From the IMG/VR virus record IMGVR_UViG_3300029505_000002: a stretch of DNA of 64,000 nucleotides; one strand, written 5' to 3'. A model generated the notes under the pieces. That model saw only the letters and a program-made list of their open reading frames with translations. It did not search any database and was not told the origin of the DNA. This document shows, piece after piece, positions 4,660-61,543 of this stretch; the first letter of the stretch is position 1; each line of letters opens with the position of its first letter. Source of the stretch: a virus. Taxonomy: Duplodnaviria > Heunggongvirae > Uroviricota > Caudoviricetes. The translations under genes and the position numbers were made by a program.

Positions 4660-4673
4660 TTCCGCATGCGGAA
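4660..4673. repeat. copy 1 of conserved palindrome TTCCGCATGCGGAA (plus orientation of the extended motif)
   Basis: perfect 14-bp GC-rich palindrome in an AT-rich intergenic region, flanked by A/T runs. Confidence 0.7.
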
Positions 4674-4679
4674 AAATAA

Positions 4680-4713
4680 AAAGAGTAGAGTGTTTAAAAA
4701 CCCTACTCTTTTC
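4680..4713 (-). terminator. rho-independent terminator downstream of the RNR gene
   Basis: hairpin aaaagagtagagtg...ccctactctttt with a T-run on the minus strand just past the RNR stop. Confidence 0.5.
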
Positions 4714-4778
4714 TTTTATTGGTAATTATTTTTTACCTTTTTTCTTTTTTGTTGATTTGCAAGCCATTGCAAGTCCTC

Positions 4779-6986
4779 CTAGTCACATTTACTATATCCA
4801 CAACTATGACATGTATAACATCCGCCTTCTGGAGATAATTCCATACCACATATTGGACATTCTAATTTGTTATTTGGTTTTGTTTGTATTTTTATTTTAT
4901 TCTCTTTTGATTTTTTTTCAATTCTAGGTATAGATATTGTATCTTTTTGCATTTCTTGTTGAAGGTCTAAAACCATCTTTAATAAAATATTAGGACAATT
5001 TTTACCAGTAATTTCTACTCCTCTAGTTCTAGCTAATGTACAAGATGAACAAGCGTCTATTCCTAAAAATGATTTCTGAATATCTGCAAGATTTCCTCCA
5101 AGTCTTAAAACTTGAGAAATAAGAATTGCTTCACCTTGGATATTTTTTGAACATCCGCCTTGCCCTTTCGCTATGTAATATATATCAGTTACTCTATTTT
5201 CCGAAGGGCTAAATCCTATCATAACCTTTGCTCTTCCACAACCATTAATCATATCTCTTGGTATATAAATTGTATCAGCAGGAACTTTATCCATTATTCC
5301 TCTAGGGATTTCAATTTCTTCTTTCTTTTTATTAGGATTAACTTCGTTAAGCACTCCTTCTATTGAACCATCAACATATACGGTTAATCCTTTTACACCT
5401 TGTTGCCACCCATAAATATATAGTTTTTTAATATCTTCAACTGTAGCCTCTTCTTTGAAGTTAGTAGTATTAGATATTGATAGGTCTACATATTTTTGCC
5501 AAGCAGAAATTACATCAACTTTTTCTTCGACAGATACATCTCTAGTATCTATGCAATAATCAGGTTTATATCCAAATTTGTCTATAATATCTTGTATTGG
5601 CTTATGAAATACTTCATAATAAGTATTTGTATTGTTTAAACTTTCTGTCTTTCTTGTATAAGACATTCTGAAAATAGGCTCTATTCCAGTAGATATATTT
5701 AGGAGTAGACTTATACTACCTGCTGGAGCAATACTTAATAAAGAATTGTTTCTTAATCCTTTTATATAAGGAACACCTAATTCTTCCATTCTTTTTTCAT
5801 CTTCAAGTATTCCTTCTGGTTGTCCATATAATTGACCTAAATATTGAGATTCTTTTATTGCTTTATCTCTCATAAGTTTAGCTATTTCTTCAGATAATTC
5901 TACAGATTCTTCACTTCCATATCTAATTCCAAGTTTCATAAACATGTCTGCTAGCCCCATTATCCCTAAACCTATTCCTCTATATTTTTCAGCTCTATCA
6001 TTTTGAATTTGTAAACCATTTTTTCCTATTCCATAATCATGAGCTTTATCTAGTGCAAATATTGCTGTTTTTACATCTTCTCCAAATGTTTCGAAATCAA
6101 AGAAAGAGTGACCAAATTCTTCTTTTACATAAGCTGACAAATTCATAGATCCTAATAAACATACAGTGCCTTTAACTCCTATAAATTCACTACAAGCATT
6201 ATTAAATAATTCTTTATCATTGTATATACTGCCAAAAAGATGATTTTCTCTATATCTATCTACAAATAATATACCTGGCTCAAAAGCTGTTTTAGGAGTA
6301 TCAACAATTGCATTCATTATTGCAACTGTATCAACAGTATGAGGAATAACTTCTCCAGTAGCTTCTACTATAAAATCTTTTTGATAAGATTCTCCTTTCA
6401 TATAATGTTCCATAAATTCATCTGTTATTAAAACTGAAAGGTTTGCTGATGTTATTTCTCCTCCATCACCCTTGTTCCCTTTTTTGATTTTGATAAAGTC
6501 CATAATATCAGGATGATCACAATGTAATCCAGCAAGCATTGCTCCTCTTCTTGCCCCACCTCTTTTTACATTTTCTGTTACAGAGTTAAATATTTTTAAA
6601 AAACCTATAACTCCATCAGATTTATGGTGTCCACCTATACTAGCTCCTTTAGGTCTTATTTTAGATAAAGCAACTCCAACACCAGCTTCTTTTTTATAAG
6701 AAATAGCTAGATTTTTAGCAGTATCCATTATATCATCTAAAGAATCTTCTACATAAGAAAATGTTGTACAATTTGAAAGTCCTTGTCCATTATCTGTGTT
6801 TAGATTAGCAAGTATTCTCCCACCATATAAGAACTTTTTATCTAATATTAATTGCTTTACTTTTTCTTCTCCGTTACTGATTCTTTCTATCCATTCATCA
6901 AAACTTTCATTATTAAATCTATATTTTTTATTCCATACATCTATAGATAGTTTATTATCTTCTCCAAGCCATTCTTGTACTGTCAT
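4779..6986 (-). CDS. ribonucleotide reductase catalytic subunit (class II NrdJ-like, C-terminal Zn ribbon)
   Basis: 735 aa with an RNR barrel region and active-site-like N-x-C-x-E (NACSEF); C-terminal CPICG...CYTCHSCG zinc ribbon; no small subunit (NrdB) gene in the window. Confidence 0.7.
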   Translation of the reverse strand: MTVQEWLGEDNKLSIDVWNKKYRFNNESFDEWIERISNGEEKVKQLILDKKFLYGGRILANLNTDNGQGLSNCTTFSYVEDSLDDIMDTAKNLAISYKKEAGVGVALSKIRPKGASIGGHHKSDGVIGFLKIFNSVTENVKRGGARRGAMLAGLHCDHPDIMDFIKIKKGNKGDGGEITSANLSVLITDEFMEHYMKGESYQKDFIVEATGEVIPHTVDTVAIMNAIVDTPKTAFEPGILFVDRYRENHLFGSIYNDKELFNNACSEFIGVKGTVCLLGSMNLSAYVKEEFGHSFFDFETFGEDVKTAIFALDKAHDYGIGKNGLQIQNDRAEKYRGIGLGIMGLADMFMKLGIRYGSEESVELSEEIAKLMRDKAIKESQYLGQLYGQPEGILEDEKRMEELGVPYIKGLRNNSLLSIAPAGSISLLLNISTGIEPIFRMSYTRKTESLNNTNTYYEVFHKPIQDIIDKFGYKPDYCIDTRDVSVEEKVDVISAWQKYVDLSISNTTNFKEEATVEDIKKLYIYGWQQGVKGLTVYVDGSIEGVLNEVNPNKKKEEIEIPRGIMDKVPADTIYIPRDMINGCGRAKVMIGFSPSENRVTDIYYIAKGQGGCSKNIQGEAILISQVLRLGGNLADIQKSFLGIDACSSCTLARTRGVEITGKNCPNILLKMVLDLQQEMQKDTISIPRIEKKSKENKIKIQTKPNNKLECPICGMELSPEGGCYTCHSCGYSKCD

Positions 6987-7162
6987 ATTAATTCACGCTT
7001 CCTTCCTCTGCTTTTTCTTTTGCTGCTTTAATTATAAAATCTTCATTTATATATTTTAACTTGTCATTACAAGGTTTACATTTCCAATTTCCTGTTGCTA
7101 TATCAATAACACTTTCTAAAGGTTTTCTAAGTATTTCTTCTACTAACTCCCAATTTTTCATA

Positions 7163-7642
7163 TTATACCTCCATAGAATTAAATTCTCTCTCTATACAAT
7201 ACATAGAATAAGTACTTAATTGATTAGTTTTATACAAATCTAAAGCTTGTTCATAAGTAATATATTGCTTTTCATTATATATAATAGAATCCATTATATT
7301 AGAATCTATTGTATTTAAAGCTCTACTATAATCTTTATATTTAATACATATAATATTACCCAAGGATAATATTCCGTCTTTTAAGTATACTCCTCTTGTT
7401 GTTTCTATGTAGTCTGTAATCATAGGAACAATATTAAATTCTTGTTCAAGAATTGGATTTAAAAAATAAGTAACACTTTGTGATTCATCTATTGGTGTGC
7501 ATGGTAAAGTATATTGGTTAAAATAAGGTGTTTTACAAATTAAAAATTTACCTTCTGAATTTCTATATAATGCCATTGCTATTGAATCTTTTTGAAGTTT
7601 TTGAGCAACTTCATAAATATCACCTACTGCCATTCTTTTCAC
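7163..7642 (-). CDS. hypothetical protein
   Basis: 159-aa ORF with a TATAAT-like -10 upstream. Confidence 0.45.
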   Translation of the reverse strand: MKRMAVGDIYEVAQKLQKDSIAMALYRNSEGKFLICKTPYFNQYTLPCTPIDESQSVTYFLNPILEQEFNIVPMITDYIETTRGVYLKDGILSLGNIICIKYKDYSRALNTIDSNIMDSIIYNEKQYITYEQALDLYKTNQLSTYSMYCIEREFNSMEV

Positions 7643-7667
7643 CTCATTTCTTTTTTTTATAGTATAA

Positions 7668-7690
7668 TTATATTAGCATTAAAAAAGGTT
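7668..7690 (-). terminator. rho-independent terminator
   Basis: ggttgagttcgattactcaacc stem-loop preceded by an A-run (T-run on the minus strand) after the stop of 7699..8217. Confidence 0.5.
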
Positions 7691-7698
7691 GAGTTCGA

Positions 7699-8217
7699 TT
7701 ACTCAACCAATTTCTTCACACTTTGATAATAAGCATATACTCTTTCTCTAGTTCTTTCTGCATCTTTAATAAAGGTATCTACAAAATCAAAATCTGTTTT
7801 AATATCATTTTTTTCAAGTTCTAAATTTATTAGTTGTTCTTTAACAGCTTTCTTTTTTGCTTCTTCTTTTTCTCCTTTTGTTTTAGATTCTATTACTGCT
7901 TCAAGAAATTCTACACTTTTTTCAACTTTTATTTTTTCAAGATCATATTTTTTATTAATTGTATCACTTTTAATTTTTACATATAATCTTAATTGTTCAA
8001 GCCAACCTAACATTTTATCAGCTTTTTCTATAAAATCTATACAATCATCTAATGCTTTTGGATTTACACCTTGTAGTGTAGATATATCTTGAAGTCTAGT
8101 TCTATTTTCTATTTGAGTTTCGTATAAGTCTATGTTATGTTTTATTCCATCTCTTTTTTTCTCATCAGAAATGTATTTTTCTAATATAATTTTAAGAACT
8201 GAACTTCCTTTTAACAT
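7699..8217 (-). CDS. hypothetical coiled-coil protein
   Basis: 172-aa ORF, K/E-rich heptad-like sequence. Confidence 0.45.
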   Translation of the reverse strand: MLKGSSVLKIILEKYISDEKKRDGIKHNIDLYETQIENRTRLQDISTLQGVNPKALDDCIDFIEKADKMLGWLEQLRLYVKIKSDTINKKYDLEKIKVEKSVEFLEAVIESKTKGEKEEAKKKAVKEQLINLELEKNDIKTDFDFVDTFIKDAERTRERVYAYYQSVKKLVE

Positions 8218-11328: not shown

Positions 11329-11698
11329 TTCCTTTTTCTAATATTTCTAATATTCCAGCTTGTTCAAAGATGTCTAAAAGTTCTGATAAGCTTGGAAAAT
11401 CTTGATCACTAAATCTTATAAGTTTAATTTTTCCTAAGGTGTTGAATAGTTCTCTTTCAACATCATTTTTTTTATATTTTAAAAGTTGTTCAGTAGTTTT
11501 GAAAAAGAAGCCATCAGCTTTATCTATAGCGTGTTGGCTTCCATCACATTCAATTACAACTGGAGGAAAAGAGGTAAAATAAAAATCATACCTCTTATTT
11601 CCTTCTACCAATTCTTCTATAAGTTCAACATTATAAGATTTAGATATTTTCTTCAAAAGTTTATTCATATGTATTTGAGCTTTAGATAGCATTTTCAT
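11225..11698 (-). CDS. hypothetical protein with basic C-terminus
   Basis: 157-aa ORF; 104-nt overlap with the RuvC-like ORF suggests one of the two starts is mis-set. Confidence 0.4.
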   Translation of the reverse strand: MKMLSKAQIHMNKLLKKISKSYNVELIEELVEGNKRYDFYFTSFPPVVIECDGSQHAIDKADGFFFKTTEQLLKYKKNDVERELFNTLGKIKLIRFSDQDFPSLSELLDIFEQAGILEILEKGNDEDNANYQRIKYAEEQNRRRREQNKEFRKKLKR

Positions 11699-12839
11699 AT
11701 CCTTCTAATGTAGTTGGATCTATTTCTTCTAAAATACCACTCAACGAATCTATTAATACACTTATAGATTTAAAATCATCATAAGTCCATTTATAGCTTT
11801 TATTATTCTTTAACATAGATAAAGACATAATTACTGTACTTGCTTTTTCTATATAAGGAGTAACAGATTTTTCTGTTTTTACAGATTCTTTTATTTCTTC
11901 ATTTATTTTATCTTGTTCAGCTAAATCTTCTATTATATCATTAGCTTCACTTTGAATTTCAGGATATTCTCTATTACTATAATCAGCAATACCATTTCTA
12001 TCTATAACATCTTCTGAGTCTATTTTTTCAAATTGGTCAAAATATTCTTTTTTATCTTTAGCTTCAAGTGAATCCATATAAGTTTCATCAGCCTCTTGTT
12101 GTCTTTTTCTTTCTACTAAAACTTCATCAAAATCTTTTCCCTCTTTGAAATATTTAATAGCTTCTCTTAAATCATTTCTAGATAGTGAAGCGTATTTGTT
12201 ATAGAACTGTTTTAAAATAATTTTAGATTCTTCTGTTACACTTCCTGGGATTTCTTGTAAATGAATTACTAAAGAATAAAGCTCATCTATAGTACCAGTT
12301 TGTTTAATTGTTACTTCATCGTCTTCTAATATTTCTTTATGGAACAATACCCAGTTGAATAAACTTCTAGCTCTTCTAGGATCTATTTTACATTTCTTTA
12401 TAAAAGATACAAGACTTGTTGTGGGAGCTAATTTAATTGCTTTTACATACATATTATAAATCCAGTTAGCAATATCATATTCACTTAATCTTTCTCCATG
12501 ATTTACATTTTCATTAAAAGCATCTGTTTCCAAAGCTTCCATAGAATTATATTCTGTAATGTAAGCTTTAATGCTTTCTAATTCTAATGCTCTTGCCGCA
12601 GCAAATCTATGATATCCATCTACTATAATAATTTTTCCATCAAATAACCCTAAATGAATTTCTGGAAACATTCCTTCTGAAGCTACTAATTTATCAACAT
12701 TGTCCATATTTAATCCTCTTCTTGGATTAATATTAATTTCGTCACTAATAGCATCTAATTTTACATCACATATTTTCTTATCATTAATTGTTGAAATTTC
12801 CATTTCATTTACTTCCATTCCTTTTTCAATTGTTATCAT
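11682..12839 (-). CDS. ParB-like nuclease domain protein
   Basis: IIIVDGYHRFAAARAL resembles the ParB/Srx fold signature DG.HR..A. Confidence 0.55.
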   Translation of the reverse strand: MITIEKGMEVNEMEISTINDKKICDVKLDAISDEININPRRGLNMDNVDKLVASEGMFPEIHLGLFDGKIIIVDGYHRFAAARALELESIKAYITEYNSMEALETDAFNENVNHGERLSEYDIANWIYNMYVKAIKLAPTTSLVSFIKKCKIDPRRARSLFNWVLFHKEILEDDEVTIKQTGTIDELYSLVIHLQEIPGSVTEESKIILKQFYNKYASLSRNDLREAIKYFKEGKDFDEVLVERKRQQEADETYMDSLEAKDKKEYFDQFEKIDSEDVIDRNGIADYSNREYPEIQSEANDIIEDLAEQDKINEEIKESVKTEKSVTPYIEKASTVIMSLSMLKNNKSYKWTYDDFKSISVLIDSLSGILEEIDPTTLEGYENAI

Positions 12840-16625: not shown

Positions 16626-17267
16626 TTACTTTCTAAGAAGTTCGTTTATATACTTTGTTCCACGTCTTGTATAACATTTTTTACAAGTAATACAACTTAG
16701 ACCTGCACAGTTTATTTTTCCGCATGCGGAATTTTGATCTGAATAAACTGTAAATACTTTGTCAAAGTAATCTAACACTTCTTGGTTTTGTATCTTAACA
16801 TTAATTATCGGACTTGAAGCTATATAAATAATATTCTTTAATTTTGAATATTTCATTATCAAGTCATAACGTTTAGTCATTAAACAAAAAGTTGTTTGTG
16901 GATTATGTTTTGCTATATTTAAAAAATTTTGTACATGAATATCGTTTACAAATTCTCCAAAGCTATGAAATCTAACATAAGAGTTATTAAGAAAAGGTAT
17001 TTCTTCTTCTGTTAAGAGTTTTTTAGTTAATATATCTGTATTGTTTTTTAAACAACCTTCTAATTGCTTTCTTAATTTTTCATTCTTTTCTGCATAGCAA
17101 AGTTCACAAACACTTTTTTTTTCTCTGTCTCTTCTTGCTAAATTTCTTTTTCCCATTTCATTACAAAATTCATTACATAGTGTAGAAGTGTTAATACTTA
17201 CAATATGTTTTAATTTTCCGTCTGTATGAGTAGTAATATGTAATTGTCCTTTAATCAATCTAATCAA
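16626..17267 (-). CDS. hypothetical Cys-rich protein
   Basis: 213 aa with many Cys (CNEFCNEM, CELCY, CAGLSCITCKKC); contains palindrome copy 2 in its 3' end. Confidence 0.45.
   Translation of the reverse strand: MIRLIKGQLHITTHTDGKLKHIVSINTSTLCNEFCNEMGKRNLARRDREKKSVCELCYAEKNEKLRKQLEGCLKNNTDILTKKLLTEEEIPFLNNSYVRFHSFGEFVNDIHVQNFLNIAKHNPQTTFCLMTKRYDLIMKYSKLKNIIYIASSPIINVKIQNQEVLDYFDKVFTVYSDQNSACGKINCAGLSCITCKKCYTRRGTKYINELLRK
16718..16731. repeat. copy 2 of palindrome TTCCGCATGCGGAA (minus orientation of the extended motif), inside a CDS
   Basis: identical 14-mer; encodes N-S-A-C-G in the host ORF. Confidence 0.7.
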
Positions 17268-24987: not shown

Positions 24988-25336
24988 TTGTATCCTCCAT
25001 TATTATTCCATATTGTTCCCTAGTGCAATTTATGATTTCTTCATATTCTTTTTCTTTATCATATAATTTTGCCCTTTCTAATATTTCTTCACTTTTCTCA
25101 AATACTTTTTTAATATATTTATTTATATCTTCATCAAACAAAACATCTTTGTCTTCTATTAATATATAACTTTCAAAAACATCATCTGTATGAGAAAACA
25201 AATATGATTTATAACCTTTGTATAATTTTGATAAATTTATACAATACATTTCATACTTAGGTGTTCTAGCTACTAAAAAGTAGTCATCACTATTAATATA
25301 CATTTCTTGAACAACAAAAACTTCTATATCTTTCAT
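24977..25336 (-). CDS. hypothetical protein (start reset to the internal Met)
   Basis: the track ORF runs to 25396; the ATG at 25336 overlaps the stop of the upstream gene (ATGA-type coupling), so the shorter ORF is more likely. Confidence 0.4.
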   Translation of the reverse strand: MKDIEVFVVQEMYINSDDYFLVARTPKYEMYCINLSKLYKGYKSYLFSHTDDVFESYILIEDKDVLFDEDINKYIKKVFEKSEEILERAKLYDKEKEYEEIINCTREQYGIIMEDTNGN

Positions 25337-25638
25337 CAAACCACTTCTCCTCTTTCTATTAATCTTTCTATTTCTGCTATAGCACAATTTATGCAATCTT
25401 CTATATCATCAAAAATATTTTCAGCCGTTGAGTCTCTTAAAAGATCACAATTTGTTATCATGTCATAAAGTTTATTTTTATCTTTTATTAAAGGAACTAT
25501 ATGTTTTTGTTCATAATCATATATGCTATCTCCTAAATTAAAAGATACTAAAGACATATAATCTGTATATTTTTCTTTATTAAATTCGCCTTCTCTTAAA
25601 ATTTCTTCTATTTGATATTCTGTTAAATTGTAAGTCAT
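25336..25638 (-). CDS. hypothetical protein
   Basis: 100-aa ORF. Confidence 0.4.
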   Translation of the reverse strand: MTYNLTEYQIEEILREGEFNKEKYTDYMSLVSFNLGDSIYDYEQKHIVPLIKDKNKLYDMITNCDLLRDSTAENIFDDIEDCINCAIAEIERLIERGEVV

Positions 25639-25675
25639 ATATAATCACTTCCTTATATTTTTATATTTTTAAAAT

Positions 25676-25708
25676 GAAAAAGACGTAGAATAATATCTAC
25701 GCCTTTTT
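25676..25708. terminator. bidirectional rho-independent terminator (same hairpin family as 17285)
   Basis: aaaaagacgtagaataatatctacgccttttt flanked by A-run and T-run. Confidence 0.5.
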
Positions 25709-40863: not shown

Positions 40864-41101
40864 TCCCTTTCAAAAACAAATATTCTATCCCTGTTATTTC
40901 TTTATAATATACATCTGTTTTATCAAGTCTAGATCTACTGCTACAAGTTAAGTTTTTTCTATAACACATTTTATTTTTCTTTTCTTCTGCAATATAAGGA
41001 TAATTCACATAATCAAAAAAACATTTTAAACATTCTCTTCCTTCTGTTACTAATATATAACTGTTTTTATATTTAAACACTTGCCCTGCTTTATATTTCA
41101 T
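40847..41101 (-). CDS. small Cys-rich protein, tandem paralog 2 of 7
   Basis: 84 aa; CLKCFF...C..C...ITGIEYLFLKGSD. Confidence 0.5.
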   Translation of the reverse strand: MKYKAGQVFKYKNSYILVTEGRECLKCFFDYVNYPYIAEEKKNKMCYRKNLTCSSRSRLDKTDVYYKEITGIEYLFLKGSDKND

Positions 41102-41113
41102 TTAATCATCTTC

Positions 41114-41365
41114 TTATATTTTTATCTCTTTAATTTTGTTAAAATTCTTTTTTAATATAAGCAATTCTATTTCGCTTATTTTTTCTATAATTATATCTTT
41201 AGCATCTATTCTATACTTCCCATCACAATTAAAATAAATTGGAGGATTGCATATTCCTTCACTATAAAAAAAACAATTGTTGCAATCATAACTTTCTCTT
41301 ACTATTAGGTAATTTTCTTTAAATTTAATTATTTCACCAATTTTAAGTTCTAATCTTTTTGTCAT
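41114..41365 (-). CDS. small Cys-rich protein, tandem paralog 3 of 7
   Basis: 83 aa; CNNCFF...C..C...ISEIELLILKK. Confidence 0.5.
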   Translation of the reverse strand: MTKRLELKIGEIIKFKENYLIVRESYDCNNCFFYSEGICNPPIYFNCDGKYRIDAKDIIIEKISEIELLILKKNFNKIKEIKI

Positions 41366-41610
41366 TCTTTTTCACCCTTTAAAATTAGAAATTCTATTTC
41401 AGTTATTTCTCTATAACATACATTTGTTTTATCTGATCTAACTTCATATTCACAAAATAAATTTTTTCTATAACATACCTTATCTTTTTTTATCAAATCT
41501 GCATAAGGATAATCTTCAAAATTAAAGAAACAGTTTTCACAACTATTCCCTTCTTCTACCAATACATAACTTTCTTTGTATTTAAAAACTTCTCCAACTT
41601 TATACTCCAT
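41362..41610 (-). CDS. small Cys-rich protein, tandem paralog 4 of 7
   Basis: 82 aa; CENCFF...C..C...ITEIEFLILKGE. Confidence 0.5.
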   Translation of the reverse strand: MEYKVGEVFKYKESYVLVEEGNSCENCFFNFEDYPYADLIKKDKVCYRKNLFCEYEVRSDKTNVCYREITEIEFLILKGEKE

Positions 41611-41875
41611 TATCTCCTCCTAATAATATTAGTCTTTCTATATCAGATAACTCTTTATATATATAAGGTCGTTTATTTAAGTTGCATGGTATACCGCTAC
41701 AAGAGATTTGGTGAATATTAAAGTAACAATTTTCACACAAACTCTTATCTTTATCAATTACTTGCTTTTCAATTTTTAAAATTACATCTTCAAATTTAAA
41801 AAATTTATTTGTTTTTAACATTTTTCTTTGTTTGTCTAAATATACAATGTGATTATAAAGTGTTTCAATTTTCAT
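41600..41875 (-). CDS. small Cys-rich protein, tandem paralog 5 of 7
   Basis: 91 aa; CENCYF...C..C...LSDIERLILLGGD. Confidence 0.5.
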   Translation of the reverse strand: MKIETLYNHIVYLDKQRKMLKTNKFFKFEDVILKIEKQVIDKDKSLCENCYFNIHQISCSGIPCNLNKRPYIYKELSDIERLILLGGDNGV

Positions 41876-42095
41876 CTTTTTCCTCCATTAATACCATTGC
41901 TTCTATAGGAGACATTTCTTCAAAAATAATAGGTATTTTTCCACCTCCATAATAAAAGCATTCTTTTCCATTTGGCAAATCACAACTGAACCCATTTATA
42001 AAAAAACAATTATCACACGAATCTTGAATTTTAACTTTTAAATAAACATTTTTATATTTAATAATATTTCCTGGTTTAAAATCTTCATCATTCAT
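41865..42095 (-). CDS. small Cys-rich protein, tandem paralog 6 of 7
   Basis: 76 aa; CDNCFF...C..C...MSPIEAMVLME. Confidence 0.5.
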   Translation of the reverse strand: MNDEDFKPGNIIKYKNVYLKVKIQDSCDNCFFINGFSCDLPNGKECFYYGGGKIPIIFEEMSPIEAMVLMEEKDEN

Positions 42096-42303
42096 TTTTC
42101 GCTCCTTTCTTTTTTAACATGAGATATTCTATCTCTGATATTTCTTCAAAATGATCTTGTACATCTTTCGTTAAATCTAAACAATGAGACCTTAGTTTAT
42201 ATGGAGCTTCACAATATTTTTTATATATTTTTTCAAAATAACATCCTTTACATATTCCTTTAACAAGTTTTAAACGAACATCATTATAATTAAATATTCT
42301 CAT
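42088..42303 (-). CDS. small Cys-rich protein, tandem paralog 7 of 7
   Basis: 71 aa; CKGCYF...C...C...ISEIEYLMLKK. Confidence 0.5.
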   Translation of the reverse strand: MRIFNYNDVRLKLVKGICKGCYFEKIYKKYCEAPYKLRSHCLDLTKDVQDHFEEISEIEYLMLKKKGAKNE

Positions 42304-45396: not shown

Positions 45397-46500
45397 ATGA
45401 AGAAAGTAGATTTAATTTATGACCCTAATTTTCCACCTAATACCACTCTTGTAAAAGACTTTCCAGGTGTGGTTAGGAAAAAAGGAGAACAATTAAAAAC
45501 TTTAATTGATGAAATAGAATTGAATAGAACTTCTTCCTCTATAGCTAATGCAAAAAAGACATTCGATTATAATATGGTATTTATAACTGAAAATTCAGAA
45601 ATACCTAATGGAATGTATTTAAATGATAAAACTAATAATTATTGGGTAGGTTGTAGTGATTTTTCTACTTTACCTTCTAATACAGATACATTAGATATAG
45701 GAACAAGAATTACTATTTATAATAAAACTTATGAACTTAGAGAAGTTGATGGAATTAAAATATGGTGTCAAACATTTGGTTTAAAACCAAAATTATTCTT
45801 TGACTTTTTTGAATTTGTTAAAGAAGATACTGTGTTAACTAATAAAGGATTTGGCAATTCAGATATTACTTTAACAATTAACAATGCTGAAAGAAAAGAA
45901 CCTTTGTTACCTTATATAACTACTAAGCAACAAAATAAAATAATTACTAATATGTCTTATATCAACGACAAAACATTTACATTAACTGCAACTTTTAAAA
46001 ATATTAAAAGAAGTTTTGAAGATAATACTGTTATAGATATAAATCACAAATCAGTAATATATCATATCAAAGATGAATTTGCTAATATACATACTGGTAT
46101 TTGTTATGATAAAAGTAATAATTTATTTTATTTTGTAGGAGAAGAGGTATTTCCTATAGGTATATTCTTATCTGAAAATAAGATATATCAAATAACACTT
46201 CAATATATTAATAAGAAGCTAAATTTAATTATTGATAACGAACTTATCAAAACATTTGAATTAGATCTTGATGGATTGAAGTTATTATTTGCAGTAGGAA
46301 ATGATAATATGTTTGGTAGATATGCTACAGGTTCTTTTGAAGTAGCAGATTTAACTTTATTTAAAGAAGTGTTAACAAAAGAAGAAATTATGTGGTTATA
46401 TGTAAATCCTAGAAACTGGACTTTTTATACACATAATTCTTATCTTGATTTATCATTAGAAGAAAAAATTAAGTTAAAAAAACTATTAAAAGAAGATTAA
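45397..46500 (+). CDS. hypothetical protein with C-terminal LamG/concanavalin-like jelly-roll
   Basis: only sizeable plus-strand gene in the central region; GGAGGG RBS; C-terminal LKLLFAVGNDNMFGRYATGSFEVADLTLFKEVLTKEEIMWLY is typical of LamG-like lectin folds. Confidence 0.45.
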   Translation: MKKVDLIYDPNFPPNTTLVKDFPGVVRKKGEQLKTLIDEIELNRTSSSIANAKKTFDYNMVFITENSEIPNGMYLNDKTNNYWVGCSDFSTLPSNTDTLDIGTRITIYNKTYELREVDGIKIWCQTFGLKPKLFFDFFEFVKEDTVLTNKGFGNSDITLTINNAERKEPLLPYITTKQQNKIITNMSYINDKTFTLTATFKNIKRSFEDNTVIDINHKSVIYHIKDEFANIHTGICYDKSNNLFYFVGEEVFPIGIFLSENKIYQITLQYINKKLNLIIDNELIKTFELDLDGLKLLFAVGNDNMFGRYATGSFEVADLTLFKEVLTKEEIMWLYVNPRNWTFYTHNSYLDLSLEEKIKLKKLLKED

Positions 46501-46502
46501 AA

Positions 46503-46516
46503 TTCCGCATGCGGAA
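46503..46516. repeat. copy 4 of palindrome TTCCGCATGCGGAA (plus orientation), immediately after the stop of the plus-strand gene
   Basis: identical 14-mer at 46503..46516. Confidence 0.7.
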
Positions 46517-46526
46517 AAATGAATTA

Positions 46527-46550
46527 GGCAGGTATTAACCTGCCTTTTTA
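46527..46550. terminator. bidirectional terminator between convergent genes
   Basis: aggcaggtattaacctgccttttt hairpin followed by a T-run. Confidence 0.55.
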
Positions 46551-51065: not shown

Positions 51066-51165
51066 TTGATACTCCCAACGAATGAATTCGTGGGATTCTC
51101 GGGTAGTAGAACCTTTTGTTAGCATTCTAAATTTACCGAGCTCAGAAGGGCTATCCTACCCTCTA
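51040..51165 (-). ncRNA. candidate TnpB omega-RNA / IS right-end structured region
   Basis: GC-richer segment overlapping and following the TnpB 3' end: cccaacgaatgaattcgtggg inverted repeat, gggtagtagaacc, ccgagctcagaagggctatcctaccc; IS605-family omega-RNAs derive from the tnpB 3' end plus the right end. Confidence 0.4.
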
Positions 51166-52323
51166 GTGTATTTTTCTTCCTTCTACTAAAATGTTAATAG
51201 AAGCATTTAAATCTCTATCATGTTCTTCTCCACATTGTGGACATACCCATTTTCTTATACTTGTATCTTTTACAAGTGCATTTTGATAACCACACGCAGA
51301 ACATATTTGACTACTAGCATAATATTGATTTATCTGTACAACATTTCTACCATACATTTTACCTTTATTATTTAGCATTATTACAAATGTTCCAAATGCT
51401 GAATCCATTATCGCTTTAGAAATACGTTTATCTTTAGACATTTCTTTTACATCTAAACTTTCTAAACAAATTAATTGGTTTTCTTGAATTAGTTTAGTTG
51501 ATAGTTTATGTAAAAAGTCTTTTCTTATATTAGCTATTCTTTCATGTAATAAAGCTATTTGTAGTTTTAGTTTTTTATATCTATTACTTTTTCTATCTTT
51601 CTTTTTAGATAGTTTTCTTTGTAATTTTTTCAATCTAGCTATATTTTTCCACATTGGTTTCGGAGCTTTAAATTCTTGTCCATCAGAACAAACAGCAAAT
51701 GTTTTTAATCCTAAGTCAATACCTATTTCTTTTGTAACTGGTTGTAATTTACTAGTGGTTTCATCAACACAAAAAGAAATAAAGTATTTTTCAGTAGGAG
51801 TTTTAGATATAGTAGCAGAAAGAATTTTTCCATTAAACTTTCTAGACCAAATTATATCTACTAATCCTACTTTTGGAATCAAAACTTGATTACCTTTAAT
51901 TTTACAAGTAGTTGTTTTGTAACTAGCTTTAGGATTATTTTTACTTTTAAACTTAGGATGAGCTTCGCTGTCTATAATTGTTGGTTTTTTATTTTTTCTT
52001 TTTAAACGTTCTACAACTTTAGAAGAATATCTAACTCCATTTTCCTTTACAAATTCAAACCAATTCTTATAAGTACTTTCTAATTGTTTCAAAGTTTGTT
52101 GCAACGCAGTAGAATCAACTTCGTTTAAGAAGGTATCTGATTTTTTAATTTGAGTTAATAAAGCTGACATTTTGTTATAATTTAACTTTTCTCCAAATTC
52201 TTTAAAACGAAATTCTTTTAAAGCTAAAAAGCCATTCCAAACATATCTACAGCAATTGAATGTTTTATCGATAATTTCTTGTTGTTCTTTTGTTGGGTAG
52301 ATTCTATATTTATATCCTTTCAA
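51163..52323 (-). CDS. tnpB: TnpB (IS200/IS605-family OrfB; RuvC-like RNA-guided nuclease)
   Basis: N-terminal MKGYKYRIYPTKEQ is a hallmark of OrfB/TnpB; C-terminal Zn finger CSACG...CPQCG; RuvC-III-like DRDLNASINIL. Confidence 0.8.
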   Translation of the reverse strand: MKGYKYRIYPTKEQQEIIDKTFNCCRYVWNGFLALKEFRFKEFGEKLNYNKMSALLTQIKKSDTFLNEVDSTALQQTLKQLESTYKNWFEFVKENGVRYSSKVVERLKRKNKKPTIIDSEAHPKFKSKNNPKASYKTTTCKIKGNQVLIPKVGLVDIIWSRKFNGKILSATISKTPTEKYFISFCVDETTSKLQPVTKEIGIDLGLKTFAVCSDGQEFKAPKPMWKNIARLKKLQRKLSKKKDRKSNRYKKLKLQIALLHERIANIRKDFLHKLSTKLIQENQLICLESLDVKEMSKDKRISKAIMDSAFGTFVIMLNNKGKMYGRNVVQINQYYASSQICSACGYQNALVKDTSIRKWVCPQCGEEHDRDLNASINILVEGRKIH

Positions 52324-52462
52324 TTTTTACACCTCCTTTTTGTCGATTATATTTTTTTACATTATAATAATGTATATACATATTATACATAGATTATACT
52401 TTTAAACAAATTTACATATGTTTTTATGTGTATATACATATTAATAATCGGAGGTAACAAAT

Positions 52463-52603
52463 ATGAAAAAAAGAATACAATTAGTGATGAATGAAAAAGT
52501 TTACAAGGAACTTCAAAAAAGAGCAATAGATGAAGATACAACTGTATCTGCTATATTAGAAAAACTTGCTGCAGATTATTTAGCCTTATATCCCCATGAC
52601 TAA
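52463..52603 (+). CDS. ribbon-helix-helix (CopG/Arc-like) DNA-binding protein, unlisted small ORF
   Basis: TCGGAGGTAACAAAT-ATG; MKKRIQLVMNEKVYKELQKRAIDEDTTVSAILEKLAADYLALYPHD has the beta-strand + two-helix RHH pattern; followed by a ccccatgac..gtcagggg tttt hairpin. Confidence 0.5.
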   Translation: MKKRIQLVMNEKVYKELQKRAIDEDTTVSAILEKLAADYLALYPHD

Positions 52604-52667
52604 AGTCAGGGGTTTTACGGCTATTCCCCATAAAATCACCTTCCTTTTTTTATTTAAAATAACATAA

Positions 52668-52723: not shown

Positions 52724-52743
52724 AGTTTCTCACGTGAGAAACT
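52724..52743. repeat. 20-bp perfect palindrome AGTTTCTCACGTGAGAAACT; parS-like candidate centromere
   Basis: CACGTG centre flanked by GTTTC/GAAAC, as in the TGTTNCACGTGAAACA parS consensus; lies ~20 bp downstream of the ParB-like gene. Confidence 0.45.
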
Positions 52744-52759: not shown

Positions 52760-53500
52760 TTAAACATCGTTTTCTAATTCAGCTTTCATTGATTTTTCTA
52801 ATTCTTTAATAATTGCTATTTTTTCTTTTTGTAATTTTATTTCTTCCTTAAGTATTTCAAGTTCTTCTCTTTTCTCTTTCAACAAAAGTTCAAGATTTTT
52901 TCTATCTTTAGTCGTTTGTTTTAATTTTTCTTTTTTATCATCTAAAGATAATTCTTTAAAATAATCTATATCTACTTCCTCTGGTTCTTCAGGTCCTTTT
53001 ATTTTATATTCTATAGCTTTTGCTATATTATCAGAGCTTATAATATCTATTACCTCTGCTTCCTCTATTTCTTTATTATTAAGAGCTTTAGTGATCATAG
53101 TTGTTTCTCTAGCTGTTAAATCCATAACAGTTTCCATATTAGAAATCAAATAAAGTTTATATTTATCTAAACATCTATATACAAAAGGTCTTGATAAGCC
53201 TAATTGTTCGATCCATTTAATAAAAGTTCCATCACCAACTTTTTCTCTTGATAATATTTTTTGAGCATCATATAAAGCCATAGATATATCCATTAAAGAA
53301 CTAGAAATTATTTCTTGTTTCTTTACTACTATCTGTTCTAATTCTATTAGTTTTATCTTTTCAGTCTCGCCTACTTGCAACATTTGGTAATCAACTTTTG
53401 ACGTATAGGTGTTAGTGTTTATTATTTGAGTAAGATTGTTTTGTATTTGATTTCTATTTAGGTTTTCTCTGTTTCCAAGCATAAATGTTTTTTTAGCCAA
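52760..53500 (-). CDS. putative partition protein (ParB-like / centromere-binding), third gene of the rep-parA operon
   Basis: position immediately downstream of parA; HTH-like FIKWIEQLGLSRPFVYRCLDKY; C-terminal coiled coil. Confidence 0.45.
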   Translation of the reverse strand: MAKKTFMLGNRENLNRNQIQNNLTQIINTNTYTSKVDYQMLQVGETEKIKLIELEQIVVKKQEIISSSLMDISMALYDAQKILSREKVGDGTFIKWIEQLGLSRPFVYRCLDKYKLYLISNMETVMDLTARETTMITKALNNKEIEEAEVIDIISSDNIAKAIEYKIKGPEEPEEVDIDYFKELSLDDKKEKLKQTTKDRKNLELLLKEKREELEILKEEIKLQKEKIAIIKELEKSMKAELENDV

Positions 53501-53502: not shown

Positions 53503-54321
53503 TTATTCACTCCCTCTTTTTTTTCTTTGTTTAGTTATTCCTATTCTTTTCATTACTTCTTTACAAAAAGATTCATAATCTCTTCCAACATTAGATTTAG
53601 GTTTATATTCAAATATTGATTGATTACACGCTATTGCTTCAATCATAGTAACACTTTGTCTAATTGTAGAAGCCATCAAAACATCTCCAAATATATTTTT
53701 TAATTCGTTAGATATCTCTTTGCTTATTACACTTCTTTCATCATAAAGTGTTAAGAATACTCCACCCATTTGTAAATTTTCATTAAATGTTAATTTTATT
53801 GTTTCTATACTTTCTGCTAATACTGTAGAACCACTTAATTCAAATATACCAGCTTTAACTGGAATAAATACATAATTAGAAGCAACAAGAGCATTTATCG
53901 TAAGTGTTCCTAGGTTAGGAGAACAGTCAATTACACAAACATCATAAAATTTACCAGCATCTAAAAGTACTTTCTTTAATAAGTTTTCTTTTCCTAGCTC
54001 AGAAGAAAAATTGATATTTGCTCTTTCCAAAGTAAGGTTAGAAGGTAACAAATCTATGTTTTCTTTTATATTTATAAGATATTTAGTTAACTGTTTATCA
54101 GAGTTTTTATTATTCATTAAAGTATATTCAGACATAATATCATATGCTGTACCTTTCAAAACATTTGGATTAGTTCCGAAAGCAGTAGATAAATTTCCTT
54201 GTGGATCCAAATCTATTCCTAATACTCTTAATCCATTATCACTTAAATAATGAATTAAATTAAACGCTGATGTTGTTTTAGCAACTCCTCCTTTGTTATT
54301 ACACAAACTAATGGTAATCAT
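53503..54321 (-). CDS. parA: ParA/Soj-family partition ATPase
   Basis: deviant Walker A NNKGGVAKTT; DLDPQGN. Confidence 0.8.
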   Translation of the reverse strand: MITISLCNNKGGVAKTTSAFNLIHYLSDNGLRVLGIDLDPQGNLSTAFGTNPNVLKGTAYDIMSEYTLMNNKNSDKQLTKYLINIKENIDLLPSNLTLERANINFSSELGKENLLKKVLLDAGKFYDVCVIDCSPNLGTLTINALVASNYVFIPVKAGIFELSGSTVLAESIETIKLTFNENLQMGGVFLTLYDERSVISKEISNELKNIFGDVLMASTIRQSVTMIEAIACNQSIFEYKPKSNVGRDYESFCKEVMKRIGITKQRKKRGSE

Positions 54322-54323: not shown

Positions 54324-55997
54324 TTATTCCTCCTCTTTTATAATAAACATTTTATTTAAAATCATATCTGCCATTTTTTCTGTATTACCTATCTCGATAT
54401 ATCTTTCTAATTCTTTTTTATATTCTTCCATACTAACAATATATTTATCTTGAGATTGTAATCTATTCTCTTCTTTACAAATGTCATATAAAGTTTTATT
54501 TTCACTTGAAACATTTGGTAATTCAGTTTTTACCATATCTGATACTTTTTTAATAGTTTTGTTTTTTAACTCTTTTTCAGTTCTTTTAATTTTGGTTTCC
54601 ATTTTAATACTTGCTTCTTCTTTTTTATTTTTAATAATTCCATTTATATATTGTACAAGAGTTTTTTCTATCTCTTGTTTTAAATTGCTATATAAATCAT
54701 TTAATATTTCACAAGTAAATGCAGAACCAAAATCTTTTAAGAGTTTTAAAATTTTATTATCAACATTTTTATTCCAAGCTTTACTAACATATATGTTTCT
54801 TTTAGCTTTTGTAATAGCTTTGGATAATTGTTCATCTATTTCTACATCTGATAGAGCATCTACCGTTATAGGTTCATTTTCATTATTTGTTTTTATTATT
54901 TGTTGCCTCATAGTAAATTTAATTTCTTTAAAATTATAATTTGGAATTAATTCATACTCTATGCACATTCCTGTTTTTACTTTTATATCTGCAATAGTAG
55001 GAATTAGAAATCTATTTACTAAGTGTTGCTTGTTCTTTAAATAACTTTCAGGCAATTGAAAAAAACCTTTGCATTGTTCTTTAGTTATAGTTACATATCC
55101 AAATTTAATATGATCTTTTAAAAAGGAATATAGTCTTATCGAATATTTTCCAGTAAGTTTATGTGTATTTTTTTCTTGTAGATGTACATATACTTCTGGC
55201 ATTAATAAATATTTTAATATTTCATCTGGTATCTGATAGCTCATCCAAGTCATTCTTTTCTTTTGAATAAAAGCAATACTAGCAATCATATTAGATACAG
55301 ATTCTATTTTAAGATTTTTTTTATCAATATAATTAAATGATAATTGTATTTTAGAAGCTTTTATAAGATTATCTTTTAATCTCTTAGAATTCATACCTAA
55401 TCTATTAGAAAAGGAAGTGAAATCTATAATTTTAGTTCTTCCATATCTGTTTAAAGTTTCATATACACATATATCCTTAATAGATTCTATTAGTTCTATT
55501 AATTCGTTATCTGTATATACTAAAAGTTCCATATTTTTCATAGATAGTTTTTTAACATCTATACCCTCTATATCAAGAAGATATTTTTCTTTTTTAGTTT
55601 TATCTATTAAAGAAGAATGTGCAGCTTCTATTTTTTTTCTTAAAATTTCTTCTTTAAGTTTTGGAACTTCTTCTGATTTTATTTTAGAAAAATCAATATT
55701 TATCTTTTTTATACCATCTTTAACATATGCAATCTTTAATAGATTATCTATTGTTTTGCTATCACTAAATAATCTACGTAGATAAGGTTTATATATGTCA
55801 AAGAATAATTTTTGTAATTCCATTTGAGTATCTGCTAATATAGATATAATACTTTTTTCAGTATCTATATTGTAATACTCTTGCTCTGTTGTAAATGTTA
55901 CTAGAGCGCTGTGTTGTTTCAATATTCTATCTGATTCAATAATTTCATTTTTTTTTAATCTCATCAAGAAAACAACTCCTGTAGTTTCATGTTTCAT
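54324..55997 (-). CDS. plasmid replication initiator (Rep_3 / RepB-like)
   Basis: C-terminal KYSIRLYSFLKDHIKFGYVTITKEQCKGFFQLPESYL...RFLIPTIADIKVKTGMCIEYE follows the Rep_3 pattern (Y.IRLYE.L...G...i....l...l.lp..Y......r.vl.pai.ein); iterons lie immediately upstream. Confidence 0.6.
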   Translation of the reverse strand: MKHETTGVVFLMRLKKNEIIESDRILKQHSALVTFTTEQEYYNIDTEKSIISILADTQMELQKLFFDIYKPYLRRLFSDSKTIDNLLKIAYVKDGIKKINIDFSKIKSEEVPKLKEEILRKKIEAAHSSLIDKTKKEKYLLDIEGIDVKKLSMKNMELLVYTDNELIELIESIKDICVYETLNRYGRTKIIDFTSFSNRLGMNSKRLKDNLIKASKIQLSFNYIDKKNLKIESVSNMIASIAFIQKKRMTWMSYQIPDEILKYLLMPEVYVHLQEKNTHKLTGKYSIRLYSFLKDHIKFGYVTITKEQCKGFFQLPESYLKNKQHLVNRFLIPTIADIKVKTGMCIEYELIPNYNFKEIKFTMRQQIIKTNNENEPITVDALSDVEIDEQLSKAITKAKRNIYVSKAWNKNVDNKILKLLKDFGSAFTCEILNDLYSNLKQEIEKTLVQYINGIIKNKKEEASIKMETKIKRTEKELKNKTIKKVSDMVKTELPNVSSENKTLYDICKEENRLQSQDKYIVSMEEYKKELERYIEIGNTEKMADMILNKMFIIKEEE

Positions 55998-56063
55998 GTT
56001 TCAAGAGTTTTGTTGTTTAGTGCTTTGTTACTGCTTGAAAACTAAGGCTTTTGAAGACATACT

Positions 56064-56121
56064 TGTAACAAACTGTAACACAAATATAACACTCTGTAAC
56101 CGAAGTATAACTTCCTGTAAC
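56064..56121. repeat. iterons: six T(G/A)TAAC repeats at alternating 10/11-bp spacing (candidate oriV)
   Basis: TGTAAC at 56064, 56074, 56095 and 56116; TATAAC at 56085 and 56106; nearby direct repeats gtttcat x3 (55985..56005), aact(c)ctaactttttgaaa x2 (56127..56163), acttgaaacat x2. Confidence 0.65.
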
Positions 56122-56278
56122 AAAGAACTAACTTTTTGAAATGAACTCCTAACTTTTTGAAACAAAAAAACTTGAAACATTTAGTAATTATATTTTTTTA
56201 TATTTTTCTTTATTTTAACATTTTTTCTATAATAATTACTAGGATTTTTTTAAACTTGAAACATTCTGTAAAAGAAAA

Positions 56279-56302
56279 AAGGTAGAGAAATTAATCTCTA
56301 CC
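56279..56302 (-). terminator. rho-independent terminator after the SPFH gene
   Basis: aaaaaaggtagagaaattaatctctacc (AATTAA-loop family). Confidence 0.55.
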
Positions 56303-60400: not shown

Positions 60401-60730
60401 TTACTCTTCAGCAAATTCTCCGATTCTTTTTGTCTTTTTTAGTTCTTTTAAATAATTAAATAATTCTTCTTTTTCTTCTAAAAATTTATATTGTTGAGAA
60501 CATTCTTTTAAACTAATACACCTATCACAAATACCTTTTATTTCATTTAGTATATTTAATGATTCATCAATATCTTCATCGAATAAAAGTTCATATGTTT
60601 CTAAATATGTATAATCATTTGTATCATGATCAACAGAACAAAAAACATTTCCAGATATAACAAATGTATTTCGATTGGCTTTAAAGAAGAAATAAGATAT
60701 TGTATCTCTTTTAAATTTATATACTTCCAT
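60401..60730 (-). CDS. hypothetical protein
   Basis: 109-aa ORF. Confidence 0.4.
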   Translation of the reverse strand: MEVYKFKRDTISYFFFKANRNTFVISGNVFCSVDHDTNDYTYLETYELLFDEDIDESLNILNEIKGICDRCISLKECSQQYKFLEEKEELFNYLKELKKTKRIGEFAEE

Positions 60731-61094
60731 TTAATTTAGCTCTCAACTCCCTTTTGATAGAACTAATTATCAATGATAAAGTAGATCTATTTGTTATATG
60801 AGTTAACACAAGTCTATTGTTTTCGTCTAACGAATCATTTATTATTTTATTATTTGGAATTCTTAAAAATTTATTAATTGCTCTTCTAATGTCTTTATTA
60901 AATAATATTTCATATTCATCCAATGGAGTTCTCCAATTATATATTGCATCAAAATAATAAGTTATATGAATATTAACTTCTTTATTTGAATTTATAGTAT
61001 AATCAATAACATATTCATTTCCAAAAGTTATATTTAAAGACATATAAGAGTTTTCTCTTTCTATTTTAAAAATCTTGATCATAAATCCTCCCAT
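60717..61094 (-). CDS. hypothetical protein
   Basis: 125-aa ORF. Confidence 0.4.
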   Translation of the reverse strand: MGGFMIKIFKIERENSYMSLNITFGNEYVIDYTINSNKEVNIHITYYFDAIYNWRTPLDEYEILFNKDIRRAINKFLRIPNNKIINDSLDENNRLVLTHITNRSTLSLIISSIKRELRAKLNGSI

Positions 61095-61132
61095 AAAAAA
61101 AGAGTCTTTATGACTCCTTAATAACTATTATT

Positions 61133-61208
61133 TGGTGCTTGCTACAGGAATTGAACCTGCTACCTATTGCTTACCATGCAATTGCTCTACCTATTGAGCT
61201 AAGCAAGC
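61133..61208 (-). tRNA. tRNA-Thr (anticodon GGU)
   Basis: manual fold: acceptor GCTTGCT/AGCAAGC, D-arm GCTC-AATAGGTA-GAGC, anticodon stem ATTGC/GCAAT with loop ATGGTAA, T-arm GCAGG-TTCAATT-CCTGT, discriminator A, CCA encoded; 76 nt. Confidence 0.7.
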
Positions 61209-61219
61209 ACTTTTGGTTA

Positions 61220-61513
61220 TTATACTTCCTTTCTTTTTTCTTGAAAAATATTAAGAAAAATACTTTTGATTTTATTGCATAATTCCTTGTTATTAACATT
61301 ACAATTTAAACAACTTTCAAATACCTTTTCAGGATTATCAAAAACATTATTTACATTTTCATCAAATAAAGTTTCATATTCTTCATATTCTTCTTCAATA
61401 TGTGGGTCAACAATAATAGGACATTTAATCTGTTCTTCTAATATTATACCTATTTCATCGTCAAGTAATACTTTTTGTCCTTTATTGTTTATTATTAACT
61501 TCATTGTAATCAC
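61220..61513 (-). CDS. hypothetical acidic protein
   Basis: 97-aa ORF; palindrome copy 5 lies 15-30 bp upstream of its start. Confidence 0.4.
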   Translation of the reverse strand: MITMKLIINNKGQKVLLDDEIGIILEEQIKCPIIVDPHIEEEYEEYETLFDENVNNVFDNPEKVFESCLNCNVNNKELCNKIKSIFLNIFQEKRKEV

Positions 61514-61529
61514 CTACCTTTTTAAATTT

Positions 61530-61543
61530 TTCCGCATGCGGAA
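61530..61543. repeat. copy 5 of palindrome TTCCGCATGCGGAA (minus orientation)
   Basis: identical 14-mer at 61530..61543. Confidence 0.7.

Follow-up and report, generated by a model that had tools for sequence, protein, structure and literature searches.

The palindrome TTCCGCATGCGGAA, 14 bp long, is dispersed in five copies over a 64,000-nt stretch of tailed-phage DNA (IMG/VR record IMGVR_UViG_3300029505_000002; the whole stretch is called the window here). The motif is real and functional, and its sites are repeated, selected and symmetric. We favour, at somewhat better than even confidence, the explanation that the copies are dispersed operator or loading sites for a dimeric DNA-binding protein encoded by the phage. 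The most likely binder is the orphan ParB/KorB/Noc-fold protein encoded at 11682-12839, a leading but unproven candidate.

Copies of the palindrome in the window

The 14-bp palindrome was found exactly at 4660, 16718, 46503 and 61530 and with one mismatch (CTCC...) at 32140. The original prediction, made from the letters of the window, had given the same first four positions and had placed the mismatched copy at 32139. The 12-mer core TCCGCATGCGGA is exact in all five copies and is the sole strongly over-represented 12-mer in the window; 0 of 100 dinucleotide-preserving shuffles matched it, which bears out the five-copy palindrome. All copies lie within an oriented 22-mer, AAAWTTCCGCATGCGGARAAAT, that reads AAA(A/T)TTCCGCATGCGGA(A/G)AAAT. 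As had been described, two copies are in the plus and three in the minus orientation. The sites in the window are the following:

Site B, 4656-4677, plus strand: 22-mer AAATTTCCGCATGCGGAAAAAT, between the ribonucleotide reductase terminator hairpin (4678-4713) and the promoter region of the gene 3862-4512, which encodes a protein like the C-terminal domain (CTD) of the RNA polymerase alpha subunit.
Site C, 16714-16735, minus strand: the ancestral copy, inside the GP88-like open reading frame (ORF) 16626-17267, where it encodes QNSACGKI.
Site E, 32136-32157, minus strand: the GGAG variant, overlapping the last codons of ORF 32126-32494.
Site F, 46499-46520, plus strand: begins in the stop codon of the plus-strand gene 45397-46500 and lies between convergent genes.
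Site G, 61526-61547, minus strand: between the stop codon of 61546-61833 and the Shine-Dalgarno (SD) sequence AAGGTAGGTGAT of gene 61220-61513.

The gene 3862-4512 begins 148 nt downstream of site B, which is kept in relative L198. Site E is 5 nt upstream of the SD of gene 31775-32122, the gene before that of the DNA polymerase III (Pol III) alpha subunit; it is the same in L187, L191, L193 and L211 and is not present in L189. Site F is followed by a bidirectional terminator hairpin (46526-46545), and the orthologous junction of L189 is without the site. The 61530 copy is about 17-25 nt upstream of a start codon. The predicted gene contexts were correct, with two copies inside ORFs (16626-17267 and 32126-32494), where they encode NSACG, and three intergenic copies, two of them near gene starts.

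The surroundings of three sites were noted as well. The minus-strand gene 3862-4512 next to site B has a 216-aa product whose C-terminal domain matches the alpha-subunit CTD (Pfam E=1e-12). An array of paralogues beginning with MKW (31775-32883), whose copy number differs among relatives, adjoins site E, and a separate tRNA-Thr (61133-61208, minus strand) lies about 320 nt downstream of site G.

Further copies and their conservation

A sixth copy was found at the window-equivalent position -3880, 3.9 kb left of the window. A fork-trap (Ter) function was rejected, since the orientations alternate (+,+,-,-,+,-) and have no single switch point. A metagenome scan with a 21-mer gave 22 loci in a few samples. 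With two IMG/VR pieces added, these loci fall into at least 12 site classes, A to L, of which 3-4 are in ORFs (C, H and J, plus E in the window).

The gaps between the window copies are 12.1, 15.4, 14.4 and 15.0 kb, with a coefficient of variation of 0.11 and a p of about 0.001 for random placement, calculated post hoc. The quasi-regular spacing of the original prediction is thus real in this window. It is not a conserved property because the site density is uneven: the sixth copy is 8.5 kb to the left, one relative of 95-97% identity has an additional copy at about 25650, the structural half has two sites at a distance of 7.6 kb, and a 74.7-kb IMG/VR contig has two exact copies only.

Orthologous copies in relatives of 89-97% identity were variable in 1 of 198 motif columns. 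In the four indel-free site classes no motif column varied (0/88), compared with 41 of 480 flank columns. None of the family loci contained a degenerate copy with 1-3 mismatches, except for a recurrent variant in which GGAA has become GGAG. Purifying selection acts on the copies, which are not decaying. Conservation in relatives, which had been proposed as a check, was found at orthologous positions in the 89-97% relatives and failed at two positions in a relative of 85% identity, L189. Neither L189 nor L186 contained repeated GC-rich words, and no homologues were found for the 1766-aa protein in which site J lies.

The objection that the motif could be an abundant bacterial word was not borne out. 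In a 17-mer scan of genome contigs, the matches listed were scattered single ones in unrelated phyla, mostly symmetric TTTTTCCGCATGCGGAAAAA terminators; the scan is uninformative on the host. An SphI-type restriction site was also rejected. The hexamer GCATGC occurs six times in the window and five of these are the motif, so that the sites are conserved and not avoided, and the homing or restriction site of the original prediction lacks support.

The ancestral copy in the GP88-like gene

The copy in the GP88-like gene is ancestral. Its NSACG falls in a variable linker of the GP88-like protein, and because this linker has the same length in homologues, the motif at site C is not an insertion. 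The site C DNA of five diverged relatives reads CCGCATGCGG, TCGCATGCGA, TATCGCATGCGATA, ACGCATGCGT and TCGCAAGCGA. The core C-GCA-(T/A)GC-G is kept in all five through rare codons (synonymous usage of GCC 2.5%, GTC 2.1%, ATC 5.4%, TCC 1.7%, TGC 13.8% and AGC 8.8%; NNC codons at the site have 2-19%). The arms vary symmetrically, as TTCCG, TATCG, TGTCG and ACG. The covariation score of the arms was 0.49 versus 0.19 in shuffles, a value reached by 1 of 500 shuffles; in the outer arms 90% of the cells were paired and 3 of 5 pairs had double changes. More distant GP88 homologues are without the element. A literature search for CCGCATGCGG returned primers and unrelated matches only, and a viral scan for TATCGCATGCGATA chance single matches only.

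The right flank of the 22-mer, GGA AAA ATA, codes for Gly-Lys-Ile at site C, and for this reason the other copies look as if they had been copied from the site C version. From this comparison, the asymmetric A-rich flanks are best explained as inherited from the ancestral intragenic copy.

Such copying could mean that the motif is a recombination linker or a mini mobile palindrome, where a 22-29-bp unit from site C spreads to module boundaries and acts as short homology for module exchange or as the core site of a recombinase; its conservation would then reflect recent copying. This would account for the 22-29 nt that the copies have in common, including flanks that are coding at site C, for the subfamilies with common 3' extensions (D/E/J, A/H/L, B/C and F/K), for the mosaic breakpoints at the motif in sites D and E and for the absence of the motif from L189 as an indel of about 26 bp. 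An Xer-like recombinase domain of 180 aa is encoded at 2164-2706. However, no breakpoints were found at sites B, C, F and G, and among 13 relative loci no inversion or deletion was bounded by two sites. The 180-aa protein is a catalytic domain only, without a core-binding domain, and the recombinase site of the original prediction lacks support. A tyrosine-recombinase core site of the dif/lox type has inverted arms of about 11-13 bp, an asymmetric spacer of 6-8 bp, a full-length recombinase and site-bounded rearrangements; here the arms match over 4-8 bp only and the centre is palindromic. In a comparison with repetitive extragenic palindromic (REP) elements, their associated tyrosine transposases (RAYT) and miniature inverted-repeat transposable elements, site C showed no insertion and site E the indel of about 26 bp against L189. 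No Y1/RAYT transposase was seen in the annotated regions, that is, no Y1_Tnp in about 100 kb of loci that cover part of the genome and contain TnpB and IscB. Finally, copying leaves unexplained both the purifying selection and the different, equally symmetric palindrome of a distant lineage. We regard a linker as distinctly improbable.

A different palindrome in a distant lineage

A 177-kb IMG/VR contig of 22% GC represents a lineage with 61% polymerase identity. In its examined regions TTCCGCATGCGGAA was not found, and at least two copies of another perfect palindrome of 16 bp, AATACGCCGGCGTATT, were present. Both are in the order stop codon (or tRNA), palindrome, SD and ATG. One of them precedes the same unusual SD, AAGGTAGGTGAT, as site G (seen in L289), and a second contig of the same sample holds the same AATACGCCGGCGTATT element. 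The palindrome has been replaced in a lineage-specific manner.

Both palindrome families have a CGC...GCG core and are symmetric through the centre (CATG and CCGG). Since the sites are uniform within a genome, different between lineages and centre-symmetric, they point to a co-evolving, two-fold symmetric DNA-binding protein that acts in trans. Lineage-specific symmetric palindromes argue against generic hairpins, terminators and a purely selfish insert. The palindromy through the centre favours a dimer bound to the duplex because a dimer needs symmetry at the centre, whereas a hairpin does not.

In the distant lineage an alternative palindrome lies about 55 nt after a tRNA. At the junction where L225 has AATACGCCGGCGTATT, the window contains a bidirectional GC-rich hairpin, GGTTGAGT...ACTCAACC, at 7687-7708.

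The candidate binder

The protein that most likely binds the sites is encoded by the following gene:

11682-12839, minus strand: candidate binder of 385 aa with a two-domain ParB/KorB/Noc fold (N-terminal domain and helix-turn-helix, HTH).

Its match to Pfam ParB_N is weak and below the cut-off (E=0.0027). A structure was predicted by AlphaFold2 with an alignment of 22 homologues, and the model had a predicted local distance difference test (pLDDT) score of 81. The best matches of this model in the PDB, searched with Foldseek, were KorB (8qa8), ParB in complex with CDP (6sdk) and the complex of Noc with its binding site NBS (7ol9); 1vz0 was matched too. The alignments had 200-220 columns at E values of about 1e-6 and spanned the N-terminal and the HTH domains. 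The model thus shows a ParB-type fold for the 11682-12839 protein.

In all lineages examined, the gene follows the GP88-like gene 3-4 kb downstream, with synteny in L214, L216, L223 and L225, and it lies about 4 kb from site C. In the putative recognition helix an Arg-Arg pair is invariant and other residues differ by lineage. The orthologues contain NPR (box I) and ENVNHG (box III-like). No ParA is adjacent to the candidate; the ParA of the window (53503-54321) is 40 kb off, beside another gene, of 246 aa, and its own palindrome.

The par operon and its own palindrome

The par region has these features:

53503-54321: parA, adjoining the 246-aa gene 52760-53500.
52725-52742: parS-like perfect palindrome of 18 bp, GTTTCTCACGTGAGAAAC, directly downstream of the operon of parA and the 246-aa gene.

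The 246-aa protein was the ParB-like protein named in the original prediction. It has no match in Pfam, NCBIfam or the PDB and no ParB or ribbon-helix-helix signature, and its single-sequence AlphaFold2 model, with a pLDDT of 50, was unusable. The idea of specific protein-binding sites stood in so far as operator or ParB-type sites in general are the best-supported reading; the protein named for them did not, and the ParB/KorB/Noc fold was found at 11682-12839 instead. The palindrome GTTTCTCACGTGAGAAAC occurs as a single copy, is conserved in L205, lies outside the motif family and resembles chromosomal parS. It is a candidate for the natural centromere of the par operon.

Dispersed palindromic centromeres are known in N15, and the original prediction had suggested that the five copies are centromeres of this N15/F type for the ParA system of the window (53503-54321 and its 246-aa neighbour). 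The plasmid-type module with a Rep3-like initiator, iterons and ParA, as well as the even spacing, would be in line with this. We nevertheless consider such centromeres very unlikely because the par operon has its own adjacent, single-copy palindrome. Moreover, the 246-aa partner is without a ParB signature, the nearest motif copies are 6-7 kb from the par operon, and the ancestral site is 36 kb off in the replication module.

Just downstream of the par operon a TnpB (IS605 OrfB) unit with a 46-aa ORF is inserted (51159-52633). In relative L191 it sits elsewhere, after window position ~21263, and because of this different location the unit is regarded as actively mobile. A link between TnpB or IscB and the palindrome was rejected, as the TnpB unit moves independently of the motif.

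Gene context and orientation of the sites

Gene boundaries contain 8-9 of the 12 site classes, even though coding sequence makes up about 92% of the DNA. In sites D, E, G and L an SD follows after 3-10 nt, and sites A, B, F and K are at operon ends, three of them beside terminator-like hairpins. The A-rich strand is the sense strand in all operon-internal or in-ORF copies (7/7) and the T-rich strand in all operon-end copies (4/4). This pattern is best explained by selection against a hairpin with a U-run, i.e. a terminator, arising inside operons.

Several observations weigh against a duplex-bound ParB-like dimer. The position at gene boundaries and the orientation, which follows the transcription context in 11 of 11 orientable cases, also fit a role at the RNA level or one linked to transcription. 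The single-arm variants GGAG and TGTCG (L216) are G.U-compatible on the sense strand, and the centre in relative L217 is the non-palindromic CAAG; both are friendly to a hairpin. The 22-29 nt common to the copies need an unexplained copy-and-paste process, and conserved asymmetric flanks are not normally shared by the sites of ParB, Noc and KorB. The 85% relative L189 is without the motif at the E and F junctions, with an indel of about 26 bp at E, so that individual sites are dispensable and can be lost or gained. The candidate protein has DGYHR where canonical ParB proteins that depend on cytidine triphosphate (CTP) have GERRxR, with (I/V)DG(Y/W)HR in 5 of 5 orthologues. This box II makes clamp-like spreading or CTP-dependent sliding uncertain. 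The pairing of the candidate with the palindrome is circumstantial, resting on synteny and on the variation of the recognition helix.

The motif could alternatively act in the RNA, where a hairpin UUCCG-CAUG-CGGAA would be the target of an RNA-binding protein or nuclease of the phage, similar to boxB/nut or a translational operator, and would control processing, stability, antitermination or translation of the next gene. The strand rule and the covariation of the arms are compatible with this, as are the two one-sided variants and the L217 change, which is confined to the loop; both palindromes of the distant lineage, like D, E, G and L, are 3-10 nt upstream of an SD. Against it, the RNA hairpin is marginal, with a 5-bp stem and -4.8 kcal/mol, and some relatives have stems of 3 bp with -0.6 kcal/mol. 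Two independent motif families are palindromic through what would be the loop (CATG, CCGG), the operon-end copies show different flanks in the RNA, and short spacers push any intergenic insert near an SD. No candidate for a phage RNA-binding protein was identified. In an Rfam covariance-model scan of the window only the 4 tRNAs reached the gathering score, and the motif matched no structured RNA family. A function in the RNA is therefore rated as unlikely.

Transcription signals were considered as well, either intrinsic terminators (hairpin and U-run) or promoters of a phage-specific RNA polymerase with transcription beginning immediately 3' of the motif. A consensus scan flagged the copies at 4660 and 16718 as minimal terminators, copies with the T-rich strand as sense are at operon ends, some by canonical terminators, and those with the A-rich strand as sense precede an SD. 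The 5-bp stem is, however, weak for a terminator, and terminators do not need identical 22-mers. A U-run is on the sense strand in merely 4-5 of 12 classes, and the ancestral site and the palindromes of the distant lineage are without a U-run in either direction. The regions examined contained no phage RNA polymerase, and three copies, if promoters, would direct transcription antisense or immediately into a terminator. A scan for sigma-70 promoters gave fewer promoter-like sites than in shuffles and no usable signal. Transcription signals are accordingly a highly improbable explanation, and operator or loading sites for a dimeric protein remain our preferred one.

The phage-plasmid and its other genes

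The window has a GC content of 25.3%, slightly below the predicted ~27%. Nearly all of its genes are on the minus strand. It represents that half of a phage-plasmid of about 150-200 kb which contains the replication and plasmid genes. The genes for replication and nucleotide metabolism encode a ribonucleotide reductase, a UvrD helicase, RecA, a primase-helicase, an HU-like protein, a split Pol III alpha, a T4-type Rnl2 ligase, a dUTPase and FolD; other genes include a homologue of the anti-Pycsar protein Apyc1, Rha/ANT and four tRNAs. The plasmid-type module comprises the Rep3-like initiator, iterons, ParA and the TnpB element.

Contigs with DNA identical to the window are 75-76.5 kb long, those of 95-97% relatives 127-148 kb and those of more distant ones 177-206 kb. 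Tail-fibre genes are on motif-bearing loci from the same samples that have no match in the window. From these contig sizes and tail-fibre genes, the element is a large tailed phage of about 150-200 kb carrying plasmid-type maintenance genes. Megablast of 25-kb window pieces against phage and plasmid collections gave no match, and the relatives found by tblastn of the polymerase were all below 31% identity, with no close isolate in these collections. Homologues in metagenome-assembled genomes are labelled Peptostreptococcaceae or Fusobacteriaceae.

Upstream of the Rep3-like initiator gene (54324-55997), iteron-like repeats at 56040-56280 consist of four (T)GTTACAG and two AAACTTGAAACAT and probably form the plasmid-mode origin. 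The Pol III alpha gene (27975-31785) is split into overlapping products of 878 aa and 416 aa; relatives have an intact gene of 1265 aa, or one of 1091 aa followed by a GIY-YIG endonuclease. Relatives also contain LAGLIDADG and HNH genes and inteins in the primase. Seven tandem paralogous ORFs of about 71-91 aa (40630-42303, minus strand) are not found in L189; the five with printed translations are Cys-rich. A cluster of tRNA-Trp, tRNA-Asn and tRNA-Ser is at 35272-35516 (minus strand). The right end of the window may cut through a second TnpB-like ORF (~62600-64000, plus strand).

In the structural half, an IscB-like protein with RRXRR and HNH domains (Pfam E=7e-63) is encoded at 252-1502 of the close relative L207 (minus strand), about 0.9 kb from site H. 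A 95-97% relative has an insert of about 560 bp that corresponds to window ~25640-25700 and contains a 5S rRNA-like gene (L212, 3461-3567; Rfam RF00001, 45.1 bits at a gathering score of 38), antisense to its neighbours. At the end of the insert, a terminator, the motif and an SD lead to the start of the gene orthologous to window gene 25336-25638. It would be unusual for a phage to carry a 5S rRNA.

Proposed function and comparison with known systems

We propose that the palindrome is this lineage's version of a family-wide cis-element and would provide high-affinity sites on duplex DNA. In a dimer, one half-site would be contacted by each HTH. The invariant Arg-Arg pair may recognise the CGC core, which is likewise invariant, and the variable residues of the recognition helix may recognise the outer bases, which are specific to the lineage. 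The bound protein could mark or organise the DNA of the phage-plasmid and/or dampen the genes directly downstream; many sites abut a ribosome-binding site. By analogy to the KorB operators on RK2 or the chromosomal Noc sites, such a marking, organising or dampening effect is the most likely one.

In a more far-reaching version, the orphan ParB/KorB/Noc-fold protein would use a roughly even, genome-wide loading array that arose when a 22-29-bp patch of the intragenic site was copied to a dozen gene boundaries. It would cover the replication and plasmid half, organise it or silence it globally, and related phages would have switched protein and sites together to another palindrome. We regard this extension as possible but doubtful.

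Large phages commonly encode ParB-like proteins that have no ParA partner and whose function is for the most part poorly understood. The case presented here links, circumstantially, such a protein with a defined and strongly selected set of palindromes. Together with the natural specificity swap between TTCCGCATGCGGAA and AATACGCCGGCGTATT in a related lineage, this makes the question directly testable. The case also documents the growth of a cis-site family from one intragenic copy to a dozen dispersed ones within a phage lineage. Should the binder be an ordinary repressor, the sites would be a tidy but unremarkable regulon.

The P1 C1 operators, the REP elements and the promoter-early stem-loop (PeSL) cassettes also are near-identical short sites at operon boundaries across a large phage genome, and some of them coincide with mosaic junctions, as D and E do here. 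However, the P1 operators are asymmetric 17-mers, REP elements are imperfect palindromes that need a RAYT transposase, and the PeSL cassettes known from T4-type phages include a promoter; the present sites showed none of these hallmarks. The sopC-like centromeres of N15 resemble the present sites in that identical palindromes are scattered away from the par operon of a phage-plasmid. In N15, the SopB encoded beside SopA binds the sites, whereas here the partner of ParA has its own palindrome and no ParB signature.

A 14-bp TTCC...GGAA palindrome in several dispersed copies, some of them intragenic, is in the style of parS, NBS and OB sites. The NBS of Noc (ATTTCCCGGGAAAT) and the parS of ParB/Spo0J (TGTTNCACGTGAAACA) are perfect palindromes of 14-16 bp with TTCC/GGAA-type arms, and the candidate matches the folds of their proteins (7ol9, 6sdk and 1vz0). 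In the ParB/Noc family, symmetric changes of the site coupled to changes of the HTH are documented. These systems differ from ours in being chromosomal, with tens of sites over megabases and canonical CTPase motifs, and their sites show neither conserved flanks nor an enrichment at gene boundaries.

KorB and its 12 OB operators (TTTAGCSGCTAAA) on the IncP plasmid RK2 are a further comparison. KorB is located beside its ParA (IncC), whereas ParA is here 40 kb off with another partner, and the candidate is without GERRxR. Binding is here a prediction, and the sites have common asymmetric flanks and are mostly next to SDs, not promoters. In both cases a protein of the ParB fold, with KorB 8qa8 as the top Foldseek match, goes with a short palindrome of GC core and AT arms on a plasmid-type replicon, and about a dozen copies are spread over tens of kb at varied distances from the genes.

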